DNA of 64,000 nt from assembly GCA_028713575.1 (NCBI GenBank), contig JAQTOB010000004.1, positions 5,250 to 69,249 on the forward strand, given 5' to 3'. Origin of the DNA: Patescibacteria group bacterium (GTDB taxonomy: Bacteria > Patescibacteriota > Patescibacteriia > UBA2591 > UBA6264). The position numbers and the translations under genes were made by a program. Positions 4,440-62,100 of this stretch are shown piece after piece (the first letter of the stretch is position 1; each line of letters begins with the position of its first letter). The notes below the pieces were generated by a model. The model was not told the DNA's origin. It saw only the letters and a program-made list of their open reading frames with translations, and searched no databases.

Positions 4440-4960
4440 CTTTTGTCAATACCCTGTAAAAATCCACCCATAATAGTACACATCCTGTGCAAGTCCACCC
4501 ATAGTATTACACCTTAGTTTTAACAAACTCATTTACGAGATTATCTACGAGGCGAGACCTCGTAGATCGTAGATTTTGATCATTACATCCTGGGGTCTGA
4601 CCCCATAAACATTCCTTCTAAAACCCTTATCAACAAAGGATTATATGACAAAAATTTCAATTTGGTGTGATTTTGATTAAATTTTTTTATCTACGAGGCG
4701 AGACCTCGTAGGAGGCGTATCTACGAGGCGAGACCTCGTAGATTGTAAATTTTTTATGGGGCTTGGGGTCTGACCCCCTGGGGTCTGGGGTCTGACCCCA
4801 TAAACATTCCTTCTAAAACCCTTATCAACAAAGGATTATATGACAAAAATTTCAATTTGGTGTGATTTTGATTAAATTTTTTTATCTACGAGGTTATCTA
4901 CGAGGCGAGACCTCGTAGATTGTACCTCGTAGATTGTAAATTTTTTAAAGAATGTTAAAA
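4440..4960. repeat. Repeat-rich intergenic region. It holds two copies of the MITE-like element (ggggtctgacccc...tttcaatttggtgtgattttgatt) and four copies of the hairpin tctacgagg-cgaga-cctcgtaga.
   Basis: Direct reading of the sequence. The hairpins are at about 4544-4566, 4689-4711, 4719-4742 and 4898-4920. The element cores begin at 4592 and 4765. Confidence 0.8.
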
Positions 4961-6471: not shown

Positions 6472-6605
6472 CCCCCTAAACATCCCTTCTAAAATTGGGT
6501 TGGGGCCTGGGGTCTGACCCCCTAAACATCCCTTCTAAAATTCGCATCAATAAAGGGTTATAGAGCAAAAATTTCAATTTGGTGCGATTTTGATTGATTT
6601 TAATA
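6455..6605. repeat. MITE-like element copy, with two ggggcctggggtctgaccccc heads and one conserved tail tttcaatttggtgcgattttgattgatttt
   Basis: Sequence identity to the elements at 4592, 29248 and 37236-37930. Confidence 0.75.
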
Positions 6606-6787
6606 TCGCAGCAATATTGCAGGCGAAACTTGTAATATTGACACTTAATATGAGTCCAAGATATTGCCCTTTACGATTTTTCCGAATGGTTTTATAATAT
6701 AAACATAAATAATTAATAAAATTTATAGACCCTGTTAGAAATTTTAAGTAAATAGAATTTTTAATCGGGACCAAGAGAACAAAATTT

Positions 6788-22450: not shown

Positions 22451-22680
22451 TAGAAAAATAAAGGAATTGATGATGCTCCTGATGAGGTGGTTCCGATGAC
22501 ACTTAAAGATACTTAGGAGGATACTTGGGAGCAAGGCTCCGAAGTAAGTCTCATAAGTACGGAAAAAACAAGACCGGAGATAGAAGTCACACGCAATAGC
22601 CATGGATTAAATGGATTAAAAAAGTTTTATAAAGGGTTCTATATTCTATATTATATTATATTTTTCATTTTTCAGATTTT

Positions 22681-22710
22681 CTTTTTGGCAGGTGCTCACC
22701 TGCCAAAAAG
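22681..22710. repeat. REP-like palindrome ctttttggcaggtg-ct-cacctgccaaaaag immediately upstream of the Y1 transposase gene
   Basis: Perfect 14-bp inverted repeat. Half-site echoes (gacctgccaaaaaa, acccgccaaaaac) follow. Confidence 0.75.
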
Positions 22711-22752
22711 AAAATGACCTGCCAAAAAAGACCAAACCCGCCAAAAACCAAA

Positions 22753-23412
22753 ATGTCTCTTAAAAATTCACTTAAAATTTACATTAAAGATGGAATCTAT
22801 CACATCTATAACCGGGGCATAGAAAAAAGAAACATCTTTTTAGATGAACAGGATTATAAAGTATTTTTATATTATTTGAAAAGTTATTTAACACCAGTTG
22901 GTCAACAAGAAAAACCGCCCTATGGTATTGATAGAAATGTTTTAGATTTCACCCTTTATAAACAAATCCGGCTTTTTTGTTTTTGTTTAATGCCAAATCA
23001 TTTTCATTTAATGATTCAGCAATTAACTGAAAGGGCGATTATAGAATTTATGAAGCGTTTAACTAACGCCTATGTAAGATATTTTAATGAAAAGTATGAT
23101 CGCAAAAGTATAGGTCCGCTTTTCCAGGGCAAATATAAAGCTGTGTTAATAAAAAAAGAACAACAATTCTTATATTTGCCGTATTATATCCATTTTCACA
23201 ATCCGGAAGGATTATATAGAAACAAGAGAGATGCTGAGTTAATCAAAAAAATACAAAATTATCCTTGGTCAAGTTATGCCGATTATTTAGGTAAACGTGA
23301 CACCAAATGGATTTATAAAAAAGGAATAATGGAGCAATTTATGGAAACAGAAGAAATAAAGCCGGAGACGGAAACTACGCGCAAAATTTTAGGTTCAACG
23401 GTTATAGATTAA
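22753..23412 (+). CDS. Y1 HUH transposase (IS200/IS605 TnpA-like; REP-associated tyrosine transposase-like)
   Basis: YHIYNRG is present. The HUH motif is CLMPNHFHLM. The candidate catalytic Tyr lies in LFQGKYKAVLI. The gene is flanked on both sides by related palindromes. Confidence 0.65.
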   Translation: MSLKNSLKIYIKDGIYHIYNRGIEKRNIFLDEQDYKVFLYYLKSYLTPVGQQEKPPYGIDRNVLDFTLYKQIRLFCFCLMPNHFHLMIQQLTERAIIEFMKRLTNAYVRYFNEKYDRKSIGPLFQGKYKAVLIKKEQQFLYLPYYIHFHNPEGLYRNKRDAELIKKIQNYPWSSYADYLGKRDTKWIYKKGIMEQFMETEEIKPETETTRKILGSTVID

Positions 23413-23425
23413 AGGGAATGTGTAT

Positions 23426-23447
23426 TTGGAAGGTGAGCACCTTCCAA
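23426..23447. repeat. REP-like palindrome ttggaaggtg-ag-caccttccaa immediately downstream of the Y1 transposase
   Basis: Perfect 10-bp inverted repeat of the same ttggNaggtg family as 22681-22710. Confidence 0.75.
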
Positions 23448-27666: not shown

Positions 27667-27718
27667 GGTTTTTGGAGACCAGGTCTCCAAAAACCTTTTG
27701 GAGACCAGGTCTCCAAAA
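27667..27718. repeat. Two adjacent REP-like palindromes (ggtttttggagacc-a-ggtctccaaaaacc and ttttggagacc-a-ggtctccaaaa) directly after the gatA stop codon
   Basis: Perfect inverted repeats. The same family clusters around the second Y1 transposase gene at 58931-59843. Confidence 0.8.
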
Positions 27719-28208
27719 AAGGTATTCAAAAAATGGCTGCTAAAATTCTGTATCTCGGAAAAATGCTGGAAAAAATATAGAAAAACGTACGGAACAAAGC
27801 TTTGTCGTTTTTTATCTATGCGCAAGTCCACCCATAGCATTACACCTGTCTGTTTGAGTAGACGAGAGGTTAAAAGGATAGCGGTCGCCGCCTTGGTATC
27901 GGCTACTCTGCCTACGGCGGGGCCTCGCACGTTGTTGACGTTTATCTCGACCACTCCAACGACAACGGGGGCTTTCGGCTCGCGGTCGTGTTTAAAATCA
28001 AGTCCTGACCTTTGATTCCTAATTTCTAATTGATTTGGAGGACTGAGGACTGAAAACTGAAGACTAATTTTAGGGAGCATTAATGATAGATGGAGATGGC
28101 AATACTTTTTATTTCATTTATCCACATCCTTTGAATGAGCGGGTATGTTGACAAAAATTTTGAAGACTATAAACTAAATAATATTAATTTGTAATTTATT
28201 TTATTCTT

Positions 28209-29244: not shown

Positions 29245-29465
29245 TTTGGGGGCTGGGGTCTGACCCCCTAAACAGACCCCCCAAAACCATTATTAGATTT
29301 GCAAAGTAGAACGATTTTTCTAATTTGGTGCGATTTTGTTGAATTTATTATATCATACCACTACAACTTCTTGCAGGTCAGACCTGCAAGAAGTCTCTGC
29401 AAGAAGTACTGCAAGAAGTAGGGCAAAAATTTTGATTTGGTGTAATTTTGACGGATTTTCATTTT
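29245..29465. repeat. MITE-like element copy (ggggctggggtctgaccccc...tttctaatttggtgcgattttgttgaattt) with an appended hairpin cttcttgcagg-tcaga-cctgcaagaag and half-site echoes
   Basis: Sequence similarity to the elements at 4592, 6455 and 37236. The hairpin is at 29367-29393. Confidence 0.7.
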
Positions 29466-31107: not shown

Positions 31108-31402
31108 CGGGGTTGTAAAAATAAGATTTTATAGTATAATGATAACATAAAATATAAGAACATTAAAACGCCAGAACACTAGAATATAGTGACAGAAATA
31201 CAATAACTAATTATTCTAATTATTCCAATGAATACCCAATTTCCAACCCCCAATGTCTAAAAATTTTTGGTCATTCAGTCATTGGTTATTGGGATTTTGT
31301 TAGGTCAATTAGAAATTAGGTTAATTAGGTTAATTTTATCTTATTTGTTCCAATGTTCCTATGTTATAATGTTCTAATGTTCTAATATTAAAATGATTTA
31401 TT

Positions 31403-37235: not shown

Positions 37236-37930
37236 TTAGATAATTGGGGTCGGAGATAATTGGGGTCTGACCCCATGAGCATCCCTTCTGAGATAATTGG
37301 GGTCTGACCCCATGAGTATCCCTTCTAAAACATACATGATAATTGGGGTCTGATAATTGGGGTCTGACCCCATGAGCATCCCTTCTAAAACATACATCAA
37401 TAAAGGATTATAGAACGAAAATTTCAATTTGGCGCGATTTTGATTGATTTCCAATAATTTTTTATCAAAACAACGATTTTTGACACTAATTTTGGGGTCT
37501 ACACTAATTTTGGGGTCTGACCCCATGAGCATCCCCTCTAAAACATACATCAATAAAGGATTATAGAACGAAAATTTCAATTTGGTGTGATTTTGATTGA
37601 TTTCCAATCACTAATTTTGGGGTCTGACCCCATGAGCATCCCTTCTAAAACATACATCAATAAAGGATTATAGAACGAAAATTTCAATTTGGTGTGATTT
37701 TGATTGATTTCCAATAATTTTTTATTAAAACAACGATTTTAATTGAAAATTGATAATTATTTAATTTACATTTAATCACTAATTTTGGGGTCTGACCCCA
37801 TGAGTATCCCTTCTAAAACATACATCAATAAAGGATTATAGAACGAAAATTTCAATTTGGTGCGATTTTGATTGATTTCCAATAATTTTTTAACAAAACA
37901 ACGATTTTAATTGAAAATTGATAATTATTT
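37236..37930. repeat. Array of at least 4 full plus partial copies of the roughly 100-115-bp MITE-like element (ggggtctgaccccatgagcatcccttctaaaacatacatcaataaaggattatagaacgaaaatttcaatttggtgYgattttgattgatttcc) between pilT and pilC
   Basis: Direct reading. The copies are near-identical, contiguous or separated by short AT-rich linkers. Confidence 0.85.
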
Positions 37931-43803: not shown

Positions 43804-44160
43804 ATGAAAACAAGTAGTTTTAAAGAAAATTTAAAAAAGAAAATGGATGAATATGTTCATTTTGTTTATAAAATTACTCTTAATTTTCCTAAAGCGGAAA
43901 TATATGGAACTGTTTCTCAATTAAGAAGGGCGTCTTTGTCGGTGGTTTTAAATTATATAGAAGGATTTGCCAGAAGAAAGAGACTTGTTCAATTGAATTT
44001 TTTAGAAATTTCTTACGGGTCGTTAAAAGAATCAAAATATCTTTTACATTTTGCTTTGATTGAAAATTATTTGGACACAAAAGACTATAAAATTGCTTTA
44101 AAAATGGCAGAAGAAATCGGAGCTATGCTTTGGACAGAAATATCTAATTTAGATAAATAA
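43804..44160 (+). CDS. Four-helix-bundle protein (TIGR02436-like; 23S rRNA intervening-sequence protein family)
   Basis: 118 aa. The sequence YKITLNFPKAEIYGTVSQLRRASLSVVLNYIEG...LKESKYLLHFA is typical of the family. Confidence 0.6.
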   Translation: MKTSSFKENLKKKMDEYVHFVYKITLNFPKAEIYGTVSQLRRASLSVVLNYIEGFARRKRLVQLNFLEISYGSLKESKYLLHFALIENYLDTKDYKIALKMAEEIGAMLWTEISNLDK

Positions 44161-44242
44161 TTAATTGTTTTTTAGCCAAAGGCTGATCCGTCTCCGACGG
44201 AAATGTTCTAATGTTCTAGTGTTTTAATGTTTTAATGTTTTT

Positions 44243-44611
44243 ATGTTTTTATGTTTTTATGTTTTTATGAATCCTAATAAATGGGAAAATTTAATATTTA
44301 TGGCTGAGGAAAAATTTGGTTTAGACAAGAAATACATGGAAGATTTTGAGGTTTCCGAACTTTCTACGGGCGAGAAAATTATGGGCCAAAAAGAAATTGT
44401 GGAATTTAAGAGTCCTTTGGGTCGGATAAAGTTAGAAAAAACTTCCCGGCCAAAAGTCATTGATAAAAAAGTTTTACACACCAAGAGAATTGGCGGCAGA
44501 ACCGCCATTGATTTCGTTTATTCGCCGGACGAAAGAGTTGAAGAGCTTAAAATTTATAAAGAAAATAAAGAAGGGGAATGGGAAGAGTTAACGGCATTGA
44601 AGGAATTTTAA
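44243..44611 (+). CDS. Hypothetical protein
   Basis: ORF only. The likely start is the later ATG at 44300 (MAEEKFGL). Confidence 0.3.
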   Translation: MFLCFYVFMNPNKWENLIFMAEEKFGLDKKYMEDFEVSELSTGEKIMGQKEIVEFKSPLGRIKLEKTSRPKVIDKKVLHTKRIGGRTAIDFVYSPDERVEELKIYKENKEGEWEELTALKEF

Positions 44612-50200: not shown

Positions 50201-51994
50201 CAAGTTGGCGCGTCAACGATTAATCAAACCGACAAGACAATCAAATTAGTGGTTCCGTTTGGCACAGATGTTACTGACCTTGTGGCGTCTTTTACTACTA
50301 CTGGCGCCTTGGTTAAAGTTAGCGGAGCAACACAAACCAGCGGTCAAACCGCTAATGATTTCACAAATTCTTTAATTTATACTGTTTCCGCCGTCAATGA
50401 GACAACACAGAATTATACGGTTAGTGTCACGGTCTTGACTAATACGCAAACCGCCATAGATGATGAGGGCGCTGTTACCATTGATAACAGCACGCCTCAG
50501 GCGGTTATTATTAATCCAACTCAGGCAGTCACTGTTGATATTGCCGAAGACACGGAAGGCCCGAGCATTGATGTTAGTTCATTTATTAGTGCCGGAACAG
50601 GAACCATTCCTCAAATTACTATTACAGCCGCGAACGCGAATAATGTTAATGTAGCCATTCCCGCCTCCACCACTGTGACCAGTGCTGATTCGGCTTGGGA
50701 TGGAGTAATTGCCGCGCCAGTCGTGACCACGGTCACTTTGCCCAATACTTCAGGAGAAATGAAAACATTAAGCACAGCCATTGAAGTCGGATTCTCCGGT
50801 GCCAAATTATCTTTTGATAAGGCGGTTAGGCTATTATTGCCGAACCAAGCGGGGAAAAGAGTAGGTTACATTAGAACAGGAATTGATTTTACGGAAATAA
50901 CTTCGGTTTGTGACGCAGACAGCCAAGCGGTTGGCGACCTCTTGTCCGCTGACGGTGAATGTAAAAAAGATGTGGGCAATGATTTAGTTGTCTGGACAAA
51001 ACATTTTACTTCCTTTGCCACTTTTAGCGCGGTTCCTTTGTCTAGTGGCGGAGGAGGCGGCAGCGCTCCTGTTTTAGTGGGCCCCTCTGATTTAAGTTTA
51101 AAAATAAATAATGATGCATTGGAAACTTTTTCAAGAAATGTTGTTTTAAATATTAATGCCGCTAATGCCACGGAAATGTTAGTCGGCGATACTGTTGATT
51201 TTGCCAATGTTGATTGGGAAGAGTATGCGAGTTTGAAAAATTGGACCTTAACTTCTGGCAATGGAGAAAAAATAATTTATATTAAATTTAGAGACAGCAG
51301 TCACAATGAATCTTCTGTAGTTTCCGACACGATTATATTAGAAGAAGAAATAGTTGCGGTTGGCGAGGGAAGCTTGGTTAAAACTGCTGATTCTACTGCT
51401 TTGTATTTGATTCTTAATGCCAAGCGTCATGTTTTTCCGCACTTGGCCGTTTATCATTCCTGGTCTTATCCAAATGATTTTTCCACTGTTAAAACAATTA
51501 CTACTGTTGAATTAAATCAATATCCGGAAGGCGATGCCGTTCCTTTCCGCGACGGCTCAATGTTCAGGGGCACGACCCAATCCTTGTATGGTAAATCCGC
51601 TTCTGCTGTTTTTTATGTAGAAGACGGGAAATTAAGAGCAGTTAAATCAGGAGAAATTTATCAGACACTTTTTAATGACCCGAATTGGTCATTAGTCACT
51701 TGGGTTCCGGACGACTTGTTGGCCAAGTTTAATTATGAATTGTCTAATGATTTAGATTCGTCAGATATCCATCCCAATGGTTCTTTGGTTAAATACCCTG
51801 ATGCTCCTGCGGTTTACCTGATTAAAAATGGCAAAAAGCAACCCTTTTCTTCTTGGGACATTTTCGTCGCTAACGGTTATAGTCAAAGGAAGATTTTTGT
51901 CATTTCGGCTGAAGAGACCTATGAAACAGCAGAAATAATCAGCAGTTTAGCCGAATCCCTGACTACGCCAGTCATTGCTGCGATGTATCAATAG
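47252..51994 (+). CDS. Giant secreted/surface protein: N-terminal signal peptide, numerous NHL-type beta-propeller repeats, Ig-like domains, and a C-terminal roughly 190-aa domain shared with the 55179-58928 protein
   Basis: RLFVADRSNNRVLVYD-like units occur at least 12 times. The Ig-like segment is SLSNGTVGEVYSQTISGTGG...LPTGLSLN. The C-terminal block KRHVFPH...PFRDGSMFRGT...VTWVPDDLLAKFNYE is shared with 55179-58928. Confidence 0.6.
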   Translation: MKIKNKIFRRVKQKITKIIFVFLMVATMTGSLTNIAQAYLLDAVDLLGQMDTLDEPIYTRSTQNNPYSTIVSNAVFNGAEDVKIDTVHHRLFVADRSNNRVLVYDLDENNQFEHYAADYVLGQPDFTTVSAGTTQSKFNASRYIAYDSNHQRLFVSEEENKRVTVFDLSEGVTTGMDASYVLGQPDFTTSDTTTTLFGFDYCWGLAYDLDNDYLYVADGSSHNRILIFDVAPEEMYNYKPAFAHLGSLIGTALDDSHFEGPHGLVLDKTNDILYATDTDHHRIMIFDTEEIINGESAINVLGQLNFTSDSTSTSSVGMNYPYNVDFDGVDERLFVADATNHRVMVFDVSGGVTDGMEASYVLGQIDFDANSSGATQSKFNKPRGVAYNSVTKELYVGDSGNNRIMVFDLSQGITNGMNASKLLGHTTRGGVPNWTFTTANQMGAPIDDIGLHTPDKVHFDSVGHRLFQSDQNNSRILVYNLDENNNLIDHVADYVIGRDDFFTGGSDNTGGGQAAFKWQHNSILDSGRQRLFVSDSYNNRIMVFDISEGIANGMNAAYVLGQPDFTSYDAITTISGVNGPRGFAFDSSTDRLFVADRNNHRVLVYDVAEIETGEDAINVLGQSDFTSNSATTSISGMDYPYDLALDQTNQRLFVIDKNNNRVVVYDVAEITNGEDAVAVLGQADFNSKIDTVEDVEQRIQTQDRLFNTRGVAYDSVNNWLFVVEYAGHRVMVFDVTEIENGEPAINVLGDETFNTTLLETIDANENTNRVATASNFWTPETAEIDGTNRKLYVSDQNHNRTMIFQLPKITTASLSNGTVGEVYSQTISGTGGAEPYVCSLVSGTLPTGLSLNANCTITGAPSAAGTANNLVIRFSDSSITSPETVGLWHNKTFSLTVDESLANIKISAKAELTAALATYNQEDYTEENWTGLNTYKTDGDTAIDDAEDTAGVTTAKNTAINGMAGVETIAQTLKTITAFSVPNQVGASTINQTDKTIKLVVPFGTDVTDLVASFTTTGALVKVSGATQTSGQTANDFTNSLIYTVSAVNETTQNYTVSVTVLTNTQTAIDDEGAVTIDNSTPQAVIINPTQAVTVDIAEDTEGPSIDVSSFISAGTGTIPQITITAANANNVNVAIPASTTVTSADSAWDGVIAAPVVTTVTLPNTSGEMKTLSTAIEVGFSGAKLSFDKAVRLLLPNQAGKRVGYIRTGIDFTEITSVCDADSQAVGDLLSADGECKKDVGNDLVVWTKHFTSFATFSAVPLSSGGGGGSAPVLVGPSDLSLKINNDALETFSRNVVLNINAANATEMLVGDTVDFANVDWEEYASLKNWTLTSGNGEKIIYIKFRDSSHNESSVVSDTIILEEEIVAVGEGSLVKTADSTALYLILNAKRHVFPHLAVYHSWSYPNDFSTVKTITTVELNQYPEGDAVPFRDGSMFRGTTQSLYGKSASAVFYVEDGKLRAVKSGEIYQTLFNDPNWSLVTWVPDDLLAKFNYELSNDLDSSDIHPNGSLVKYPDAPAVYLIKNGKKQPFSSWDIFVANGYSQRKIFVISAEETYETAEIISSLAESLTTPVIAAMYQ

Positions 51995-52026
51995 AATTAA
52001 GCCGAAATTCGGTTTAAATAAAGAAA

Positions 52027-52600
52027 AGTCCTCCTATTTTTGAGGGGGTCTTTTCTTTGTTTTGAGACTCGGTTTCCCGTTGGAAACCGAGTCTCTTCAC
52101 TTCTTGGTTGTTTTGAGACTCGGTTTCCCGTTGGAAACCGAGTCTCTTCACTTCTTGGCTTCCTGTTTAAAGTTCGGTTTCCCGCTTTGCTTCGTAGCGA
52201 GCTTTGCTCTGCTACTGGGGCTGGAAGCCGAACTTCTTTATTTTATAAAAAGCCACTTGGTCTTTAAAGTCCTCCTATTTTTGAGGGGGTCTTTTCTTTG
52301 TTTTGAGACTCGGTTTCCCGTTGGAAACCGAGTCTCTTCACTTCTTGGCTTTGATACTTTGGCGCAATCCCTGATTATGCCGGCTATGGCCGATTTAGCG
52401 CAATAAAGCTTCTATTATATATACACTTTGTTTTGAGACTCGGTTTCCCGTTGGAAACCGAGTCTCTTCACTTCTTGGCTTCCTGTTTAAAGTTCGGTTT
52501 CCCGCTTTGCTTCGTAGCGAGCTTTGCTCTGCTACTGGGGCTGGAAGCCGAACTTCTTTATTTTATAAAAAGCCACTTGGTCTTTAAAGCCTTTTTTATA
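52027..52600. repeat. Complex tandem repeat region built on a 32-nt perfect hairpin gagactcggtttcc-cgtt-ggaaaccgagtctc (4 copies) plus a twice-repeated 104-bp structured segment and duplicated leader tcctcctatttttgagggggtcttttctttg
   Basis: The hairpin copies are at 52064-52095, 52115-52146, 52305-52336 and 52435-52466. The 104-bp segment is at 52157-52260 and 52487-52590. Confidence 0.85.
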
Positions 52601-52689
52601 GGGAGGTTTGACCCCTTCCTCTTGTTATAAATATTATAAATGTTATAATAATTTTCTACTATTTTCGTAAAATTTTCGTATTTCGTAGC

Positions 52690-53220
52690 ATGTTCCACCT
52701 CAGAGAGAAAATCCTTTTTCATCAAATTAAAAACGGTGACGAACAGGCCTTCACCGTCTTTTATAATACCTATAAAGACAGAATTTATCGTTTTATTTAT
52801 TTTAAAGTTTCTGATCGTGAAAAAGTTTATGATTTGGTTTCCGAAGTTTTTATTAAAATATATGATTATATTAAAGAGGGGAATGACATTGATAATTTTC
52901 AAGCTTTTTTGTATAAAATCGCTCGTAATTTAGTAATAGATTTTTATCGCACTAAAAAAGAGGAAATTTCTTTAACTGATGCGCCGGAAACAGTTTCTCC
53001 TATCAATTTAGAAAAAGAAGTGGGAGATAAGGTTGCCGTGGAAAACGTCAAAAGATACCTTAATAAAATTAAACCAGAATACCGCGAAGCGGTTCATCTT
53101 CATTTTTTTGAAAATTTTTCTTTTTCCGAGATTGCGGATATTATCAATCAATCCGAAGGCAATGTTAGGATTAGGGTTTATCGCGGCATTAAGCAATTAA
53201 AAGAGGTTTTAAGGGGTTGA
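52690..53220 (+). CDS. RNA polymerase sigma factor, ECF (sigma-70 group 4) family
   Basis: Region 2 is FYNTYKDRIYRFIYFKVSD...DLVSEVFIKIY. Region 4 is FSFSEIADIINQSEGNVRIRVYRGIKQLK. Confidence 0.8.
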   Translation: MFHLREKILFHQIKNGDEQAFTVFYNTYKDRIYRFIYFKVSDREKVYDLVSEVFIKIYDYIKEGNDIDNFQAFLYKIARNLVIDFYRTKKEEISLTDAPETVSPINLEKEVGDKVAVENVKRYLNKIKPEYREAVHLHFFENFSFSEIADIINQSEGNVRIRVYRGIKQLKEVLRG

Positions 53221-53760
53221 ACCCCTTCTATATGTAGGGGTTCAACCCCCTCCCCAATAATCGCCATCATAAACTTTTTACACAGGAACTTTTTACACAT
53301 TTTTACACAGGACATTTTTACACAGGTTGAACCTGTGTAAATTTTCATTTGCATATTTCACAAAACAAATCCAAAATCCAAAACCCAAATTTTCATAATC
53401 ACTTGGGAACCGAGTTTCTAAAAAGCAAGAAAGCAAGAGATGGATTCTACGCTAGAAACTCGGTTTCCCGTTGGAAACCGAGTTTCCTTCTCCCCAATAA
53501 TCGCCATCATAAACTTTTTACACAGGAACTTTTTACACATTTTTATACAGCACATTTTTACACAGCACATTTTTATACATTTTTACACAGGTTGAACCTG
53601 TGTAAATTTTCATTTGCATATTTCACAAAACAAATCCAAAATCCAAAACCCAAATTTTCATAATCACTTGGGAACCGAGTTCCTAAAAAGACATTTTTAC
53701 ACAGGTTGAACCTGTGTAAATTTTCATTTGGCATTTAGTCATTTGATATTGATTTGACAT
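53213..53760. repeat. Repeat region downstream of the sigma gene. It has palindromes ggggttgaacccc and ggggttcaacccc, a roughly 200-bp direct repeat (two copies), and a compensatory variant of the 52-kb hairpin (gaaactcggtttcc-cgtt-ggaaaccgagtttc).
   Basis: Direct repeat copies at about 53246-53440 and 53490-53690. ttacacaggttgaacctgtgtaa palindromes occur at 53313-53341 and again in the second copy. The variant hairpin is at 53454-53485. Confidence 0.8.
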
Positions 53761-53867
53761 TTGACATTGGAAATTTGACATTTCACGTTTTAATGGTGTA
53801 TAATTTTTCCCCTTTCTTCGTCTTATTATTTGTCATTTAGCCATCAAATAGTTAAATCTCAATTTCA

Positions 53868-54845
53868 ATGAAATTTAAAAATTTGACCCGACAATATAAT
53901 TCAATAAAATTGGATACTGTTTCTGAAGATAAAATTCGGGAACGGGTTTTTGATTATTTTCAACAAACTCGTCCTGCTACGCCAACAATGAGTTATCATT
54001 TTAGTTTGTTTCTTAAACCGGCTTTAATAAGTTTGCTGGTTTTGTTTTTTATTTTTACAACTGGTTTTGGAACAATAGCCGTGGCGAAAAAATCCTTGCC
54101 CGGTGATTTTTTATATTCTCTTAAAAGAGTTGTGGAAAAAAGTCAAATGTTTTTGGCTTTTAGTTCTTCGCAAAAAGTCGTTTTACGCGCGGAAATTTTA
54201 AATAATCGTTTTGATGAAGCCAAGGTTTTGGTTAAGAAAATGGAAACAGGAGACAAGGAGTCAGAATCAGATTTTAATATCTTGGCCGCGAATTTTAATC
54301 AGGAATTAAAAATTTTAAAAGAAGAAATTGGAGAACAAATTTTAGTAGAGGATGGGCCTTTTCCGGCTGAGGACTTATTAAACACCGAATTATTGGACCA
54401 GGGTTCATTGCCGATTCAAGACCAACGCCAGATGTTTACTGTTTTGCCCAATGAAGACATTGAAAGACTCTTGACTGAAACCAGAGAATTGCTGGCTGAA
54501 AAAAATATGGCTTTGGCCCTAGCTCGGATTGAGCAAGTAGAAAAAATAGTCAGCGGTGAAGAAAAAGTAGAACCCCAAGAGGCAGAATCTCAGGAAATAG
54601 AACTTCAAGAAATTCAGGAAAATGAAAAGAGGATTTTAGAATCAACAGAAGAAAATTTTCAATTTCCAGCTCTTCAACCGGCGGAACAATCTCCGAATTC
54701 CGAATTGCTTGAAACCCAATCCTTGAATTCCCAATTACCCAATTTAGGTTCAACAGGAAATCTTTCAAAAGAAAAACAAGATGATTTTAAAGTTAAAATA
54801 GAAAAGGATTCTTCAGCGCAAACCAGTATGATTCGGGAAGAGTAG
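53868..54845 (+). CDS. Membrane-anchored protein downstream of the ECF sigma, possibly an anti-sigma factor
   Basis: A roughly 60-aa cytoplasmic N-terminus and a single TM helix (LISLLVLFFIFTTGFGTIAVA) precede an acidic extracytoplasmic domain. The position next to the sigma gene is the main argument. Confidence 0.3.
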   Translation: MKFKNLTRQYNSIKLDTVSEDKIRERVFDYFQQTRPATPTMSYHFSLFLKPALISLLVLFFIFTTGFGTIAVAKKSLPGDFLYSLKRVVEKSQMFLAFSSSQKVVLRAEILNNRFDEAKVLVKKMETGDKESESDFNILAANFNQELKILKEEIGEQILVEDGPFPAEDLLNTELLDQGSLPIQDQRQMFTVLPNEDIERLLTETRELLAEKNMALALARIEQVEKIVSGEEKVEPQEAESQEIELQEIQENEKRILESTEENFQFPALQPAEQSPNSELLETQSLNSQLPNLGSTGNLSKEKQDDFKVKIEKDSSAQTSMIREE

Positions 54846-58930: not shown

Positions 58931-59293
58931 TCTTTGGAGACCAGGTCTCCAAAGATAGATATAACGTTTGACTGAAGCGCGTGTCCGCCTCTGGTGGACT
59001 AAAATCAGTCCATCTGGAATAATATAATAAAAATATTAGTTCCATCGCCAAAATCCCCTTAACAGGGGATTTTGGCTTTTAAAAGGGCGCAATACCTGCC
59101 TATCGGCAGGTTTTGGAGACCAGGTCTCCAAAAAAAGTCTCCAAAAAAATCTTGCGAGGTTTTTTAGTTTTAGAGACCAGTTTTTTGGAGACCTGGTCTC
59201 CAAAAAACCCTGCGAGGCCTTTTAGGGATTGTTTTTTTTAAATTAAAATATTATAATAATTGGAGACCTAATTTGGAGACCTGGTCTCCAAAT
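58931..59293. repeat. Cluster of at least 4 REP-like palindromes of the ttggagacc-N-ggtctccaa family (58931-58955, 59111-59133, 59181-59207, 59273-59293) plus half-site fragments, upstream of Y1 transposase paralog 2
   Basis: Perfect inverted repeats. Same family as 27667-27718. Confidence 0.85.
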
Positions 59294-60028
59294 TACTCCA
59301 AATTAAAAAATAGCCTTATGAGAAAAATTAAATTTGTTAATGATGAGTATTATCATATTTATAACCGTGGAGTAGATAAACGGATTATTTTTGAGGATAA
59401 AGATGATTTAAAAAGATTTTTCCAAAGTATGAAAGAGTTTAATGTTTTAGAGCCAATAGGTAGCATTTATGAAGCGGTTCGTTGTAAAACTTTTAGAGAA
59501 ACTTTTGGAGACCAAGTCTCCAAAAGTTTTACAAATAATGAAAGATTGGTTGATTTTATTTGTTACAATTTACTTCCCAATCATTATCATTTCATTTTAA
59601 AACAGTCAGTTGAAGATGGAATTAAGAAATTTATGCATAGACTCGGATTGGGTTACGCAATGTTTTTCAATCAAAAGTATAAGCGCAACGGTTCATTGTT
59701 CCAAGGACCGTTTAAGGCGATTCATATTGATTCCGAAGCTTATTTGCTTCACTTGAGCGCTTATATTAATTTGAATCATAGGGTTCATTCTAAATTTGAG
59801 GATTTTGGAGACCTTGAGGATTTTGGAGACCTGGTCTCCAAAAGATATAAATCAAGCTGGGAGGAATATTTGGGATTAAATCAAGAAAAATTTTGTCAAA
59901 AGGAAATTCTTTTAGACCAATTTGACACAATAAAAAGCTATAGAGAGTTTGCCGAAGAATCATTAAAAGGAATAAGAGAAAGAAAGGAAATAAAAAAGTT
60001 TCTTTTAGATGATCAAATAATTGGTTGA
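59273..60028 (+). CDS. Y1 HUH transposase paralog 2 (IS200/RAYT-like). It carries in-frame REP-palindrome insertions and a Phe at the position aligned with the catalytic Tyr of paralog 1.
   Basis: YHIYNRG is present and the HUH motif is LLPNHYHFIL. GPFKAI aligns with GKYKAV of paralog 1. REP copies are at 59501-59527 and 59821-59843 inside the ORF. The start may instead be the ATG at 59318. Confidence 0.55.
   Translation: METWSPNYSKLKNSLMRKIKFVNDEYYHIYNRGVDKRIIFEDKDDLKRFFQSMKEFNVLEPIGSIYEAVRCKTFRETFGDQVSKSFTNNERLVDFICYNLLPNHYHFILKQSVEDGIKKFMHRLGLGYAMFFNQKYKRNGSLFQGPFKAIHIDSEAYLLHLSAYINLNHRVHSKFEDFGDLEDFGDLVSKRYKSSWEEYLGLNQEKFCQKEILLDQFDTIKSYREFAEESLKGIRERKEIKKFLLDDQIIG

Positions 60029-62061: not shown

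Positions 62062-62100
<39 letters not shown>

Follow-up and report, generated by a model that had tools for sequence, protein, structure and literature searches.

The window, a 64-kb stretch of DNA from an uncultured patescibacterium, contains an ECF sigma factor gene (52690–53220; 176 aa) followed by a gene for a DUF5667 membrane protein, the presumed anti-sigma factor (53868–54845). An NHL-repeat gene lies upstream, and the sigma and anti-sigma genes, like the promoter candidates, repeat elements and Y1 genes described below, are read on the + strand. Two candidate promoters of the sigma gene are suggested by matches to the sigma-70-like consensus (TTGACC-18-TATTAT and TTGTTA-16-TATAAT with TG, within 52608–52649). 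The anti-sigma gene is preceded by a triplicated TTGACA box and a candidate promoter with a perfect consensus match, TTGACA-18-TATAAT (53752–53804), and its leader, TGTATAA...TTTCTnCGTCTTA, is kept in four of four orthologous loci.

Upstream of the sigma gene are four perfect copies of a 32-nt hairpin, GAGACTCGGTTTCC-CGTT-GGAAACCGAGTCTC, beginning at 52064, 52115, 52305 and 52435, as a preliminary description of this DNA had reported; shuffled controls gave zero matches to the hairpin and repeat elements described here. The first of these, H1 (52064–52095), is an inverted doublet in which GAGAC-TCG-GTTTCC and GGAAAC-CGA-GTCTC are joined by the asymmetric 4-nt loop CGTT. H2 (52115–52146) is identical and in tandem with H1 at a 51-nt period, and H3 (52305–52336) and H4 (52435–52466) are likewise identical. 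A fifth copy downstream of the sigma gene, H5 (53455–53486), was also correctly described as carrying matching changes on both arms: its sole difference from H1–H4 is the paired substitution G3A/C30T (G:C to A:T), which gives a doublet of the canonical palindrome, GAAAC-TCG-GTTTCC and GGAAAC-CGA-GTTTC about the same CGTT, the form found widely among Patescibacteria. Each arm of the H hairpin corresponds to a palindrome of about 15 nt, GGAAAC-NNN-GTTTCC. The hairpins are flanked by TTTTG...TTCAC, and the doublets occur as tandem units in one shared orientation. As single strands, array hairpins are very stable (−16.6 and −15.9 kcal/mol; z of about −6.7). Within the window the H family is confined to 52.0–53.5 kb, beside the sigma gene, and scans of genome-contig and metagenome-contig collections returned single copies only, in other organisms. 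Viral contigs matched the small palindrome only two times, which gives no phage link. An ECF-type promoter within the H units (GGAAAC-N16/17-CGT) was considered and rejected, as CGT, judged by eye, is not found at the right spacing. CRISPR or TIGR guide arrays were likewise rejected, because copies and spacers alike are exact duplicates and the spacers do not vary.

The remainder of the upstream array is built from repeated blocks. The preliminary description had recognized a duplication of 104 bp here; the duplication is real, and its size is not, since an exact 162-nt duplication (52108–52269 = 52428–52589) and a separate exact one of 83 nt (52025–52107 = 52266–52348) are present. Each 162-nt copy holds one hairpin, H4 opening the second copy, together with a long structured hairpin, L1 (52170–52235), exactly repeated as L2 (52490–52555). 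The long hairpin has H-like arms, TTCGGTTTCC and GGAAGCCGAA, that contain one G.T wobble on the + strand, a 40-nt structured loop insertion and a T-rich tail. A terminator-like hairpin, a stem followed by a T-run, stands after the NHL-repeat gene (T1, 52016–52062) and has an exact second copy, T2, within 52266–52303. The L-to-T junction shows AAAG microhomology. Between these blocks lies X (52349–52406), the 3′-end remnant, stop codon included, of a paralogue of the upstream gene (DTLAQSLIMPAMADLAQ compared with SLAESLTTPVIAAMYQ), and this remnant marks past recombination or deletion between hairpin-bearing loci.

Downstream, the doublet hairpin P, GGGGTTGAACCCC-11 nt-GGGGTTCAACCCC (53213–53249), overlaps the sigma stop codon, an overlap that had been noted previously: the TGA (53218–53220) lies in GGGGTTGAACCCC (53213–53225), and the partner GGGGTTCAACCCC occupies 53237–53249. 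Some four partial left-arm tandem copies (TTTTTACACAGG; 53274–53341) then lead into K1 (53317–53341), a full palindrome, TTTACACAGGTTGAACCTGTGTAAA, that is terminator-like and has a T-run. Two further K palindromes follow, K2 (53582–53606) in the second 265-nt period and K3 (53696–53720), and TTACACAGGTTGAACCTGTGTAA accordingly has three copies, at 53318, 53583 and 53697. The direct repeat previously given as 200 bp is confirmed as a repeat, with the size corrected to a 265-nt period in which a 114-nt segment is 99% identical and a 76-nt segment 97%. H5 belongs to the B unit, where small palindromes run forward, reverse and forward (53405–53420, 53455–53468 and 53473–53486) whereas the H doublets themselves, across the arrays, repeat directly. 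A degenerate single small palindrome, CACTTGGGAACCGAGTTTCTAAAAAG (53401–53425), is able to pair with the left arm of H5, in what would be a BIME-like alternating arrangement, and the unit has an alternative pairing. Homology of the B unit to a 109-nt GGGGTCTGACCCC module elsewhere in the window was considered and rejected, with alignment scores within the range of shuffles.

Pairing between the hairpin arms is conserved beyond the window. In two related species (L066 and L067), where the orthologous hairpins were located via sigma orthology and not by palindrome search, the CGTT loop and TTCAC flank are kept and both arms carry three or four matched transitions. An alignment of 14 hairpin sequences has every one of its 196 cells paired and double-sided changes at 7 of 14 pairs, a result equalled by 0 of 500 shuffles. 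Two wobble pairs were encountered in all, each a G.T on the sense strand. Additionally, a copy in a ComEC-like gene has perfect arms within flanks that are merely 79–81% identical. Given the paired transitions in the orthologous arms, pairing is actively maintained, as the preliminary description had proposed from the matching changes in H5. Three species have H-like hairpins in the gap that separates sigma from the same upstream gene, a shared position that would also fit a host function.

The window as a whole contains 28 perfect hairpins with stems of at least 10, compared with 2.6 ± 1.4 in simulations, and 24 of the 28 are intergenic, while intergenic DNA makes up 17% of the sequence. At least seven local palindrome families are spread over many intergenic regions, GGGGTCTGACCCC for instance being dispersed over four to five loci. 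Many are perfect DNA palindromes about a single central base (GGTC-N-GACC, GGTT-S-AACC, GACC-W-GGTC), and direct-orientation half-site repeats adjoin full sites. Most long intergenic regions are filled with analogous arrays, which flank many unrelated genes.

Comparison among strains and relatives shows that these arrays are in flux. The unit types, and the majority of junctions, are found again in assemblies made independently from different samples, four in all, with the three others encoding an identical sigma protein, and the repeats are therefore not an artefact of the window's assembly alone. The strain comparison that the preliminary description had called for shows that array copy number and arrangement vary among strains with identical sigma protein, part of the copy-number differences possibly reflecting short-read collapse (L045 is a k141 contig, L046 is of 1.1 kb and an NCBI MAG contig is broken at the array), and the P element is wholly inverted in the three other assemblies relative to the window. 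Between the window and L044, which are 99% identical over 20.5 kb, indels of at least 6 nt fall in palindrome arrays (139, 140, 25, 20, 9, 6 and 6 nt), with the sole exception of an 8-nt AG repeat at 62065. The spacer between sigma and anti-sigma genes measures 40, 131, 401, 647 or 807 nt across relatives. It is 40 nt in L068, a more distant orthologous locus from a related species, where entirely different palindrome families lie upstream of sigma and the K, CTACGAGG and GGGGTCTGACCC palindromes occupy non-orthologous sites. Farther afield, 8 of 11 patescibacterial matches to the H-type doublet share the full 14-nt arm at unrelated sites, and H-type hairpins in other Patescibacteria are also found inside unrelated ORFs, such as ComEC-like and ComF-like genes.

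The window also encodes two RayT-like HUH/Y1 proteins that are associated with palindromes of their own. Y1a (ORF 22714–23412; 22676–23447 with its flanking palindromes) lies between two inverted palindromes (22676–22715 and 23426–23447) whose centres, CT and AG, are reverse complements. Y1b (59318–60028) has upstream copies of its palindrome, TTGGAGACCWGGTCTCCAA, at 58934, 59113, 59185 and 59273 and in-frame copies within the ORF at 59505 and 59823; the same palindrome appears again 31 kb from the gene, at 27672 and 27698. Y1b and its homologues have palindromes upstream, inside and downstream, with alternating centres. Both window genes possess HUH and Tyr motifs (PNHYHF / PNHFHL and AYINLNH / YYIHFH), the Pfam Y1_Tnp model (PF01797) is matched at 26.4 bits against a cutoff of 23, and the paralogue in the window is recovered by tblastn at 1e-26. 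The link to RAYTs comes from the fold search only: the best PDB match of the AlphaFold model is the E. coli RAYT-REP complex (4er8_A; probability 1.0, E 9.8e-4), followed by the IS608 and ISDra2 TnpA proteins, and a sequence search of the PDB with the Y1 protein returned nothing. The NCBIfam RAYT equivalog model NF047646 is not reached (20.5 bits against a cutoff of 80), and the window proteins are a distant clade separate from this curated model. At least 7,954 homologues are labelled Patescibacteria transposase or RayT, some of the RayT labels being from JGI. Synteny of the Y1 gene with HEAT and LTD genes is kept in L056–L059 and L068, and two paralogues lie within the 64 kb.

At all of the RayT-like loci examined, species-specific perfect palindromes are located about 50–90 nt upstream and within the ORF at about +170–190; most have a further palindrome at about +450–505, and some have one just past the stop codon. 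Each gene examined carries exactly its own genome's palindrome. When the two in-ORF palindrome sites of a homologue are compared with each other, 6 or 7 of 7 residues agree in 48 of 88 homologues, compared with 4% of random pairs. In two loci (L062 and L065) the palindrome is TTGGAAAC-CGA/TCG-GTTTCCAA, which equals one arm of the sigma-flanking H hairpin. As this arm is the RayT-flanking and in-frame intragenic palindrome of other Patescibacteria, the 32-nt H element can be understood as a REPIN-like inverted doublet. The 64-kb window holds no RayT-like gene with GGAAAC-NNN-GTTTCC or its GAGAC variant, and the cognate pairing is seen only in L062 and L065.

Together, these observations indicate that the sigma-flanking arrays are probably REP/REPIN/BIME-like clusters, of a Patescibacteria-wide kind tied to RayT-like Y1 transposases, that have been amplified locally by recombination. 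On this reading the arrays are local clusters of a genome-wide palindromic-repeat population and not a dedicated sigma switch, and the link between hairpin and sigma gene is positional. Mechanistically, the hairpins would form on transiently single-stranded DNA, where a cognate RayT-like enzyme may recognize and nick them and seed copies into intergenic DNA and, at times, in frame inside genes. Unequal recombination, slippage and template switching between the repeats could then multiply, remove or invert the seeded copies and their flanks in place, which would yield the tandem units, partial-arm duplications, gene-end remnant and strain-to-strain differences; the indels and the microhomology are themselves observed. 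Pairing would be kept either because the hairpin is the recognition unit of the enzyme or through intrastrand templated correction. The elements may have gathered in permissive gaps, one behind the upstream gene and the other reaching from the sigma stop codon to the conserved promoter of the anti-sigma gene itself.

The preliminary description had suggested that the arrays control the sigma/anti-sigma module, and a dedicated cis-regulatory role as stacked terminators, attenuators or small-RNA genes, which set read-through and uncouple the anti-sigma gene, can be argued from several features. The intrinsic-terminator pattern, in which a T-run stands directly behind a G+C-rich stem of at least 5 pairs, occurs at 12 sites compared with 2.4 expected, fitting T (52030–52048), K (53317–53341 and its copies) and, roughly, L, as consensus matches only. 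The H-like hairpins with compensatory changes at the same position in three species, the sense-strand G.T wobbles, the alternative pairing in the B unit and the anti-sigma gene's own consensus promoter are all in keeping with such a role. However, T-runs are absent after the H and P hairpins, and copy number and order differ between strains whose sigma protein is identical. In L068 the spacer is only 40 nt and the palindromes ahead of sigma are unrelated, and the same hairpin is found elsewhere in ComEC-like, ComF-like and other ORFs. Equivalent arrays beside many unrelated genes of the window, in most of its long intergenic regions, come close to the situation that the preliminary description had set against its own suggestion, that of ubiquitous repeats with no association with regulatory genes. 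Rfam offers no match for the arrays: at gathering score only two tRNAs are found in the whole window, and a permissive scan of 51900–53950 returned only sub-threshold matches to models of generic hairpins, those of plant miRNAs among them. A dedicated regulatory role is thus unlikely. Because some units resemble intrinsic terminators, a secondary insulating effect is possible, and several may plausibly act as terminators or insulators that uncouple sigma from anti-sigma transcription as a by-product.

An origin by purely local processes is similarly improbable. Here, ordinary terminator hairpins would stall replication, and slippage, template switching and unequal crossing-over would raise their number, with no transposase involved and the RayT-like genes coincidental. 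The tandem direct units, the exact 162-, 83- and 114-nt duplications, the AAAG microhomology at the L-to-T junction and the inversion of hairpin loops or elements, which is typical of template switching, would be accounted for in this way. Local duplication alone would also give H units in tandem and in the same orientation. Partial-arm tandem duplications beside many palindromes point in the same direction and are shown by example and by one 9-nt strain indel; a crude automated test failed to set them apart from background, scoring 9 of 42 palindromes and, in the wrong-side control, 10, since neighbouring full copies confound it. Against this origin, TTGGAGACCWGGTCTCCAA has copies 31 kb apart, K, CTACGAGG and GGGGTCTGACCC take up other positions in L068, and H-type doublets, with the full 14-nt arm in 8 of 11 matches, stand at unrelated sites in many Patescibacteria. 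Every RayT-like gene examined also carries exactly its own genome's palindrome.

It is very doubtful that the palindromes serve a dimeric DNA-binding protein as its operators or iterons, be it a regulator, a protein of partition or replication, or the sigma/anti-sigma pair itself. Perfect palindromes with a single centre do suit dimer binding better than an RNA loop, and direct half-site repeats lie next to full sites, but at least seven different sequences are present in 64 kb with rapid turnover between species, some copies are inside ORFs, the loop of H has 4 nt and lacks symmetry, and no candidate binding protein is tied to the arrays. Assembly artefacts in the form of collapsed, duplicated or chimeric repeats are scarcely credible: short-read assemblers do mishandle such repeats, an NCBI MAG contig ends at the array, two further contigs end inside it and, among the assemblies compared, only the window has the L-to-T junction, yet the unit types and most junctions are shared by the four assemblies and homologous hairpins exist in related species.

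The preferred reading, that of REP-like clusters tied to RayT-like enzymes, places these arrays alongside the REP/REPIN/BIME and RAYT (TnpA_REP) systems of E. coli, Pseudomonas fluorescens and Stenotrophomonas. Both consist of short extragenic palindromes clustered in intergenic DNA, with inverted doublets that form long hairpins (H5 and P here), an HUH/Y1 gene between two inverted copies of its own palindrome, several classes of gene and palindrome per genome, and a gene inherited in synteny; the best structural match, 4er8, is itself a RAYT. The palindromy of REPs is kept by complementary mutations (PMC2817692, PMC5581495), as it is here, and RAYTs are mostly inherited vertically at low copy number, unlike insertion sequences (Bertels 2017, PMC5581495). 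In contrast to REPs, the patescibacterial palindromes are perfect and not imperfect, very short (15–25 nt) and built on a 1–3-nt centre, and the GT(A/G)G head (GTAG/GTGG) was not found 5′ of the H hairpins. The doublets reach only 32–46 nt, the protein is too divergent for the NCBIfam model and the host genome is tiny. The patescibacterial system differs further in carrying palindromes in frame within the transposase ORF, at two loop positions that are conserved, along with copies in other ORFs, and such in-frame REP copies at two conserved RayT-like loop sites appear not to have been described before.

Other known systems resemble the arrays in part. IS200/IS605 elements and palindrome-associated transposable elements (PATEs) share the Y1 HUH fold, the Pfam Y1_Tnp match and a dependence on subterminal hairpins. 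Here, however, the gene is in synteny across species rather than multi-copy and mobile, no TnpB partner is seen, and the repeats are bare hairpins and not element ends. The Rickettsia palindromic elements (RPEs), reportedly described by Ogata et al. in 2000, are said to be 100–150 bp long and to occur both between genes and in frame within protein genes, where they add a tolerated peptide. They are alike in being palindromic repeats found intergenically and in frame, while the inserts here are 21–40 nt and go together with a family of Y1 transposases. T, L and K have a G+C-containing stem, a T-run and a position after genes in common with Rho-independent terminators and with those inverted uptake-sequence pairs that also serve as terminators; the arrays differ in that H and P have no T-run, copies are far more numerous than termination needs, and the sequences also occur in ORFs and upstream of promoters.

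A more specific proposal, offered tentatively and with a fair measure of doubt, is that the RayT-like gene itself holds the master copies of the hairpin, two in frame in disordered surface loops and others just outside, all of which would evolve in concert with the extragenic copies. Gene and palindrome family might then be one self-templating unit that seeds doublets into intergenic DNA and other ORFs, and the sigma arrays would be its products, splitting an ancestrally adjacent sigma/anti-sigma pair.

The biology of REP and RAYT has been worked out almost wholly in Proteobacteria, and a search of the accessible literature found no paper linking REP, REPIN or RAYT to the Candidate Phyla Radiation. 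These tiny, streamlined genomes nonetheless keep many palindrome families and, in 64 kb, at least two RayT-like genes. The elements have driven the sigma and anti-sigma genes as far as 807 nt apart. Metagenome assemblies break at the arrays, which also form the main structural difference between near-identical strains; they are useful as strain markers and a matter for caution in MAG curation. Additionally, the transposase ORF spells out its palindrome, and protein sequences alone could therefore reveal the cognate hairpins of thousands of enzymes.

The ORF of the ECF sigma factor (52690-53220) and that of a DUF5667 membrane protein, the presumed anti-sigma factor (53868-54845), lie among repeats that were characterized by direct reading and repeat scans. 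The latter located four perfect copies of a 32-nt hairpin (H), GAGACTCGGTTTCC-CGTT-GGAAACCGAGTCTC, at 52064, 52115, 52305 and 52435; a fifth, at 53455, differs solely by G-to-A and C-to-T changes that match each other. This hairpin had no match in shuffles of the window, and the hairpins fold as single strands with an energy near -16 kcal/mol and a z of about -6.7. Two stretches, of 162 nt (52108-52269, repeated at 52428-52589) and 83 nt, are duplicated exactly 5' of the sigma gene, a 265-nt period with three TTACACAGGTTGAACCTGTGTAA palindromes lies 3' of it, and the pair GGGGTTGAACCCC/GGGGTTCAACCCC (53213-53249) overlaps its stop codon. The repeats and hairpins of the preliminary description are present, the fifth copy with its matched arm changes included; only the unit sizes needed slight correction. 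The GGGGTTGAACCCC pair forms a doublet built like H, a longer hairpin (L) is an H-like doublet whose loop contains a 40-nt insertion, and the four upstream H copies are a derived form, the outer half being altered on both arms. The anti-sigma promoter (53752-53804) carries its -35 box in triplicate (ATTTGACATT three times), a further short tandem duplication in intergenic DNA, followed by a perfect TTGACA-18-TATAAT.

A repeat scan of the whole window, followed by reading of the long intergenic regions, revealed elements of like style nearly everywhere between genes and not only at the sigma locus, which leaves the proposal that the arrays act as sigma-specific regulators unsupported. Among the palindrome families are GGGGTCTGACCCC, present at four to five loci, TTGGAGACCWGGTCTCCAA, whose two loci are separated by 31 kb, and the intergenic ATCTACGAGGCGAGACCTCGTAGAT and ACTTCTTGCAGGTCAGACCTGCAAGAAGT. 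The window contains 28 perfect hairpins (stem of at least 10), against 2.6 +/- 1.4 in simulated sequence, and 24 of them are intergenic (intergenic DNA being 17% of the window). Next to many palindromes stand incomplete tandem copies of one arm together with its flank, such as TTTTTACACAGG, repeated about four times 5' of the full palindrome at 53317, and the series ATCTACGAGGTT, ATCTACGAGGCGAGACCTCGTAGATTGTA and CCTCGTAGATTGTA near 4890.

Other repeats were also noted. A module of about 109 nt, starting with GGGGTCTGACCCC and ending with AAATTTCAATTTGGTGYGATTTTGATTGATTT, occurs in eight copies in five intergenic regions (4590-4698, 4785-4893, 6507-6615, 29253-29361 and 37357-37893), every time on the + strand and 5' of genes on that strand; possible identities are a MITE, a small RNA and a promoter module. 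The 24-nt CAAGTCCACCCATAGYATTACACC is common to two distant intergenic regions (4490-4513 and 27823-27846), the second copy adjoining a G+C-rich stretch (about 27850-28000) that resembles a gene fragment. A gene with 23S_rRNA_IVP/bAvd domains (43804-44160) encodes a four-helix bundle resembling Avd of diversity-generating retroelements; 8-nt tandem repeats, AATGTTCT/AATGTTTT, lie 3' of it (44202-44265), with similar ones at about 31.3 kb (31344-31399).

An above-threshold Pfam Y1_Tnp match marks the ORF at 59318-60028, which has a paralogue at 22714-23412. Both possess HUH and Tyr motifs and are flanked by palindromes of their own, and the former contains its palindrome twice within the ORF (59505 and 59823). 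The AlphaFold model (pLDDT 76) has as its best PDB match 4er8, the complex of E. coli RAYT with a REP hairpin, followed by the IS608 and ISDra2 transposases. The proteins score below the cutoff of the curated RAYT model. A profile search returned at least 7,954 homologues of these RayT-like proteins, annotated as Patescibacteria transposase or RayT, which also places the source organism among the Patescibacteria; the gene neighbours are kept in loci of other species. In every RayT-like locus examined, perfect palindromes that are specific to the species lie both about 50-90 nt upstream of the ORF and within it, at about +170-190; most loci have others at about +450-505, and some directly past the stop. 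The in-ORF copies keep the reading frame and occupy two conserved positions, about +180 and +450-505 nt, in the window gene 59318-60028 and in the Patescibacteria loci L056, L057-59, L060-61, L062, L065 and L068, with a sequence that varies by species and equals that of the flanking extragenic copies. The two sites encode hypervariable heptapeptides, [FL][GR]xxxx[KQ], mostly alike within a protein and unlike between proteins: 6 or 7 of the 7 residues are common to both sites in 48 of 88 proteins, versus 4.3% of random pairs. The two low-confidence segments of the AlphaFold model, residues 63-72 and 160-173, are exactly these heptapeptides.

Both sites read LGNRVSK or LGNSVSK in four homologues (P0036, P0071, P0083 and P0116). 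In L065 and L062 the corresponding DNA is the palindrome TTGGAAAC-CGA/TCG-GTTTCCAA, found upstream of, inside and downstream of the RayT-like gene with alternating centres. The fifth hairpin, [GAAAC-TCG-GTTTCC] CGTT [GGAAAC-CGA-GTTTC], has this 15-nt palindrome as one of its arms. The hairpin at the sigma locus therefore consists of two inverted RayT-type palindromes, the arrangement that defines a REPIN (PMC5581495). Its inner 20 nt gave 43 matches in a scan of 185,579 species genomes, 11 of them in Patescibacteria, where the full 14-nt arm is common to 8. The 64-kb window holds no cognate RayT for the H palindrome, and the GTAG head is absent from these hairpins. H-type doublets also lie in frame in unrelated Patescibacteria genes, ComEC-like, ComF-like, O-antigen-ligase-like and for a secreted protein (L051 10286-11647, L048 6152-6913, L050 7700-9229 and L049 88-1983), adding peptides such as ETRFPxGNRVS. 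The ComEC-like gene has its hairpin at one identical site in three species; the flanks are 79-81% identical, and the arms are perfect and differ by one paired change.

At orthologous loci of related species (sigma identity 86%, 79% and 71%), the spacer between sigma and anti-sigma genes is 401, 131 and 40 nt, versus 647-807 nt here. Every species compared retains the promoter of the anti-sigma gene with its leader, GTGTATAA...TTTCTnCGTCTTA, so the arrays were inserted between the sigma stop codon and this promoter. Hairpins at the orthologous position in L066 and L067 keep the CGTT loop and TTCAC flank, and their arms (GAAGCTTGGCTTCC and GAGACTCAGCCTCC) differ by paired transitions without exception. 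When 14 hairpins are aligned, all 196 cells pair, with double-sided changes in 7 of the 14 pairs; no shuffle reaches this pairing, and slid controls pair at only 25-58%. The earlier suggestion that arm pairing is maintained is upheld by these data. In the third species (L068), seven CTACGAGG palindromes occur upstream of sigma instead, and K, the palindrome of the 265-nt period, adjoins the RayT-like gene of L068; families accordingly move between loci. By eye, an ECF-type promoter motif precedes the orthologous sigma genes of L066 (about 1852-1880; TGAAAC-N16-CGTCT) and L067 (about 2800-2830; TGAAAT-N16-CGTCT); none was seen 5' of the window's sigma gene, where sigma-70-like hexamers stand instead.

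Three other assemblies (L044, L045 and L046) encode an identical sigma protein. With T a terminator-like hairpin and X a 3'-terminal remnant of a gene paralogous to the one upstream of the array, the upstream arrays read T-H-H-L-T-H-X-H-L in the window, T-H-H-H-X-H-L in L044 and T-H-H-L in L045 and L046. Downstream, where A and B are the two halves of the 265-nt period and B' a truncated B, the order is A-B-A-B', B-A-B-A-B' and B-A-B', respectively. X is consistent with deletion between hairpin-bearing loci. The whole GGGGTTGAACCCC-11 nt-GGGGTTCAACCCC element is inverted between the window (53213-53249) and L044 (10527-10563), L045 and L046; as spacer it has TTCTATATGTA in the window and TACATATAGAA in these three assemblies. 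The window and L044 align over 20.5 kb at 99% identity, and all their indels of at least 6 nt fall within palindrome arrays except one 8-nt AG repeat; among the array indels, one of 9 nt duplicates part of an arm. Assembly collapse could account for some of the copy-number variation. A separate 1-nt indel (window 51072, L044 about 8520) splits a 1580-aa NHL-repeat gene into two ORFs (1274 and 305 aa) in the JGI assembly, through either sequencing error or a strain-specific frameshift. The NCBI MAG contig L052 (GCA_028711035.1, JAQTSZ010000020.1) starts within the anti-sigma gene, so this assembly broke at the repeat array; such arrays fragment Patescibacteria MAGs.

Because T, L and K fit the terminator pattern, these units may have a secondary role as terminators or insulators. 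The sigma-flanking arrays are best read as REP/REPIN/BIME-like elements linked to RayT-like enzymes, with local amplification that would proceed by recombination and slippage. The points that weigh against this reading are the absence of a cognate RayT from the window and of a GTAG head from the hairpins, the protein scores below the RAYT-model cutoff, and the copy-number differences that assembly collapse could explain in part. The literature searched yielded no REP/REPIN/RAYT system tied to the Candidate Phyla Radiation. As in classical REP/RAYT systems (PMC2817692, PMC5581495), the Patescibacteria system shows REPs that flank the gene in inverted orientation, complementary mutations and more than one class in a genome. 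The REP/RAYT literature searched contains no description of its perfect mini-palindromes, of its tiny doublets, of copies in other ORFs or, foremost, of palindromes that stand in frame within the transposase gene itself, at two conserved loop sites.
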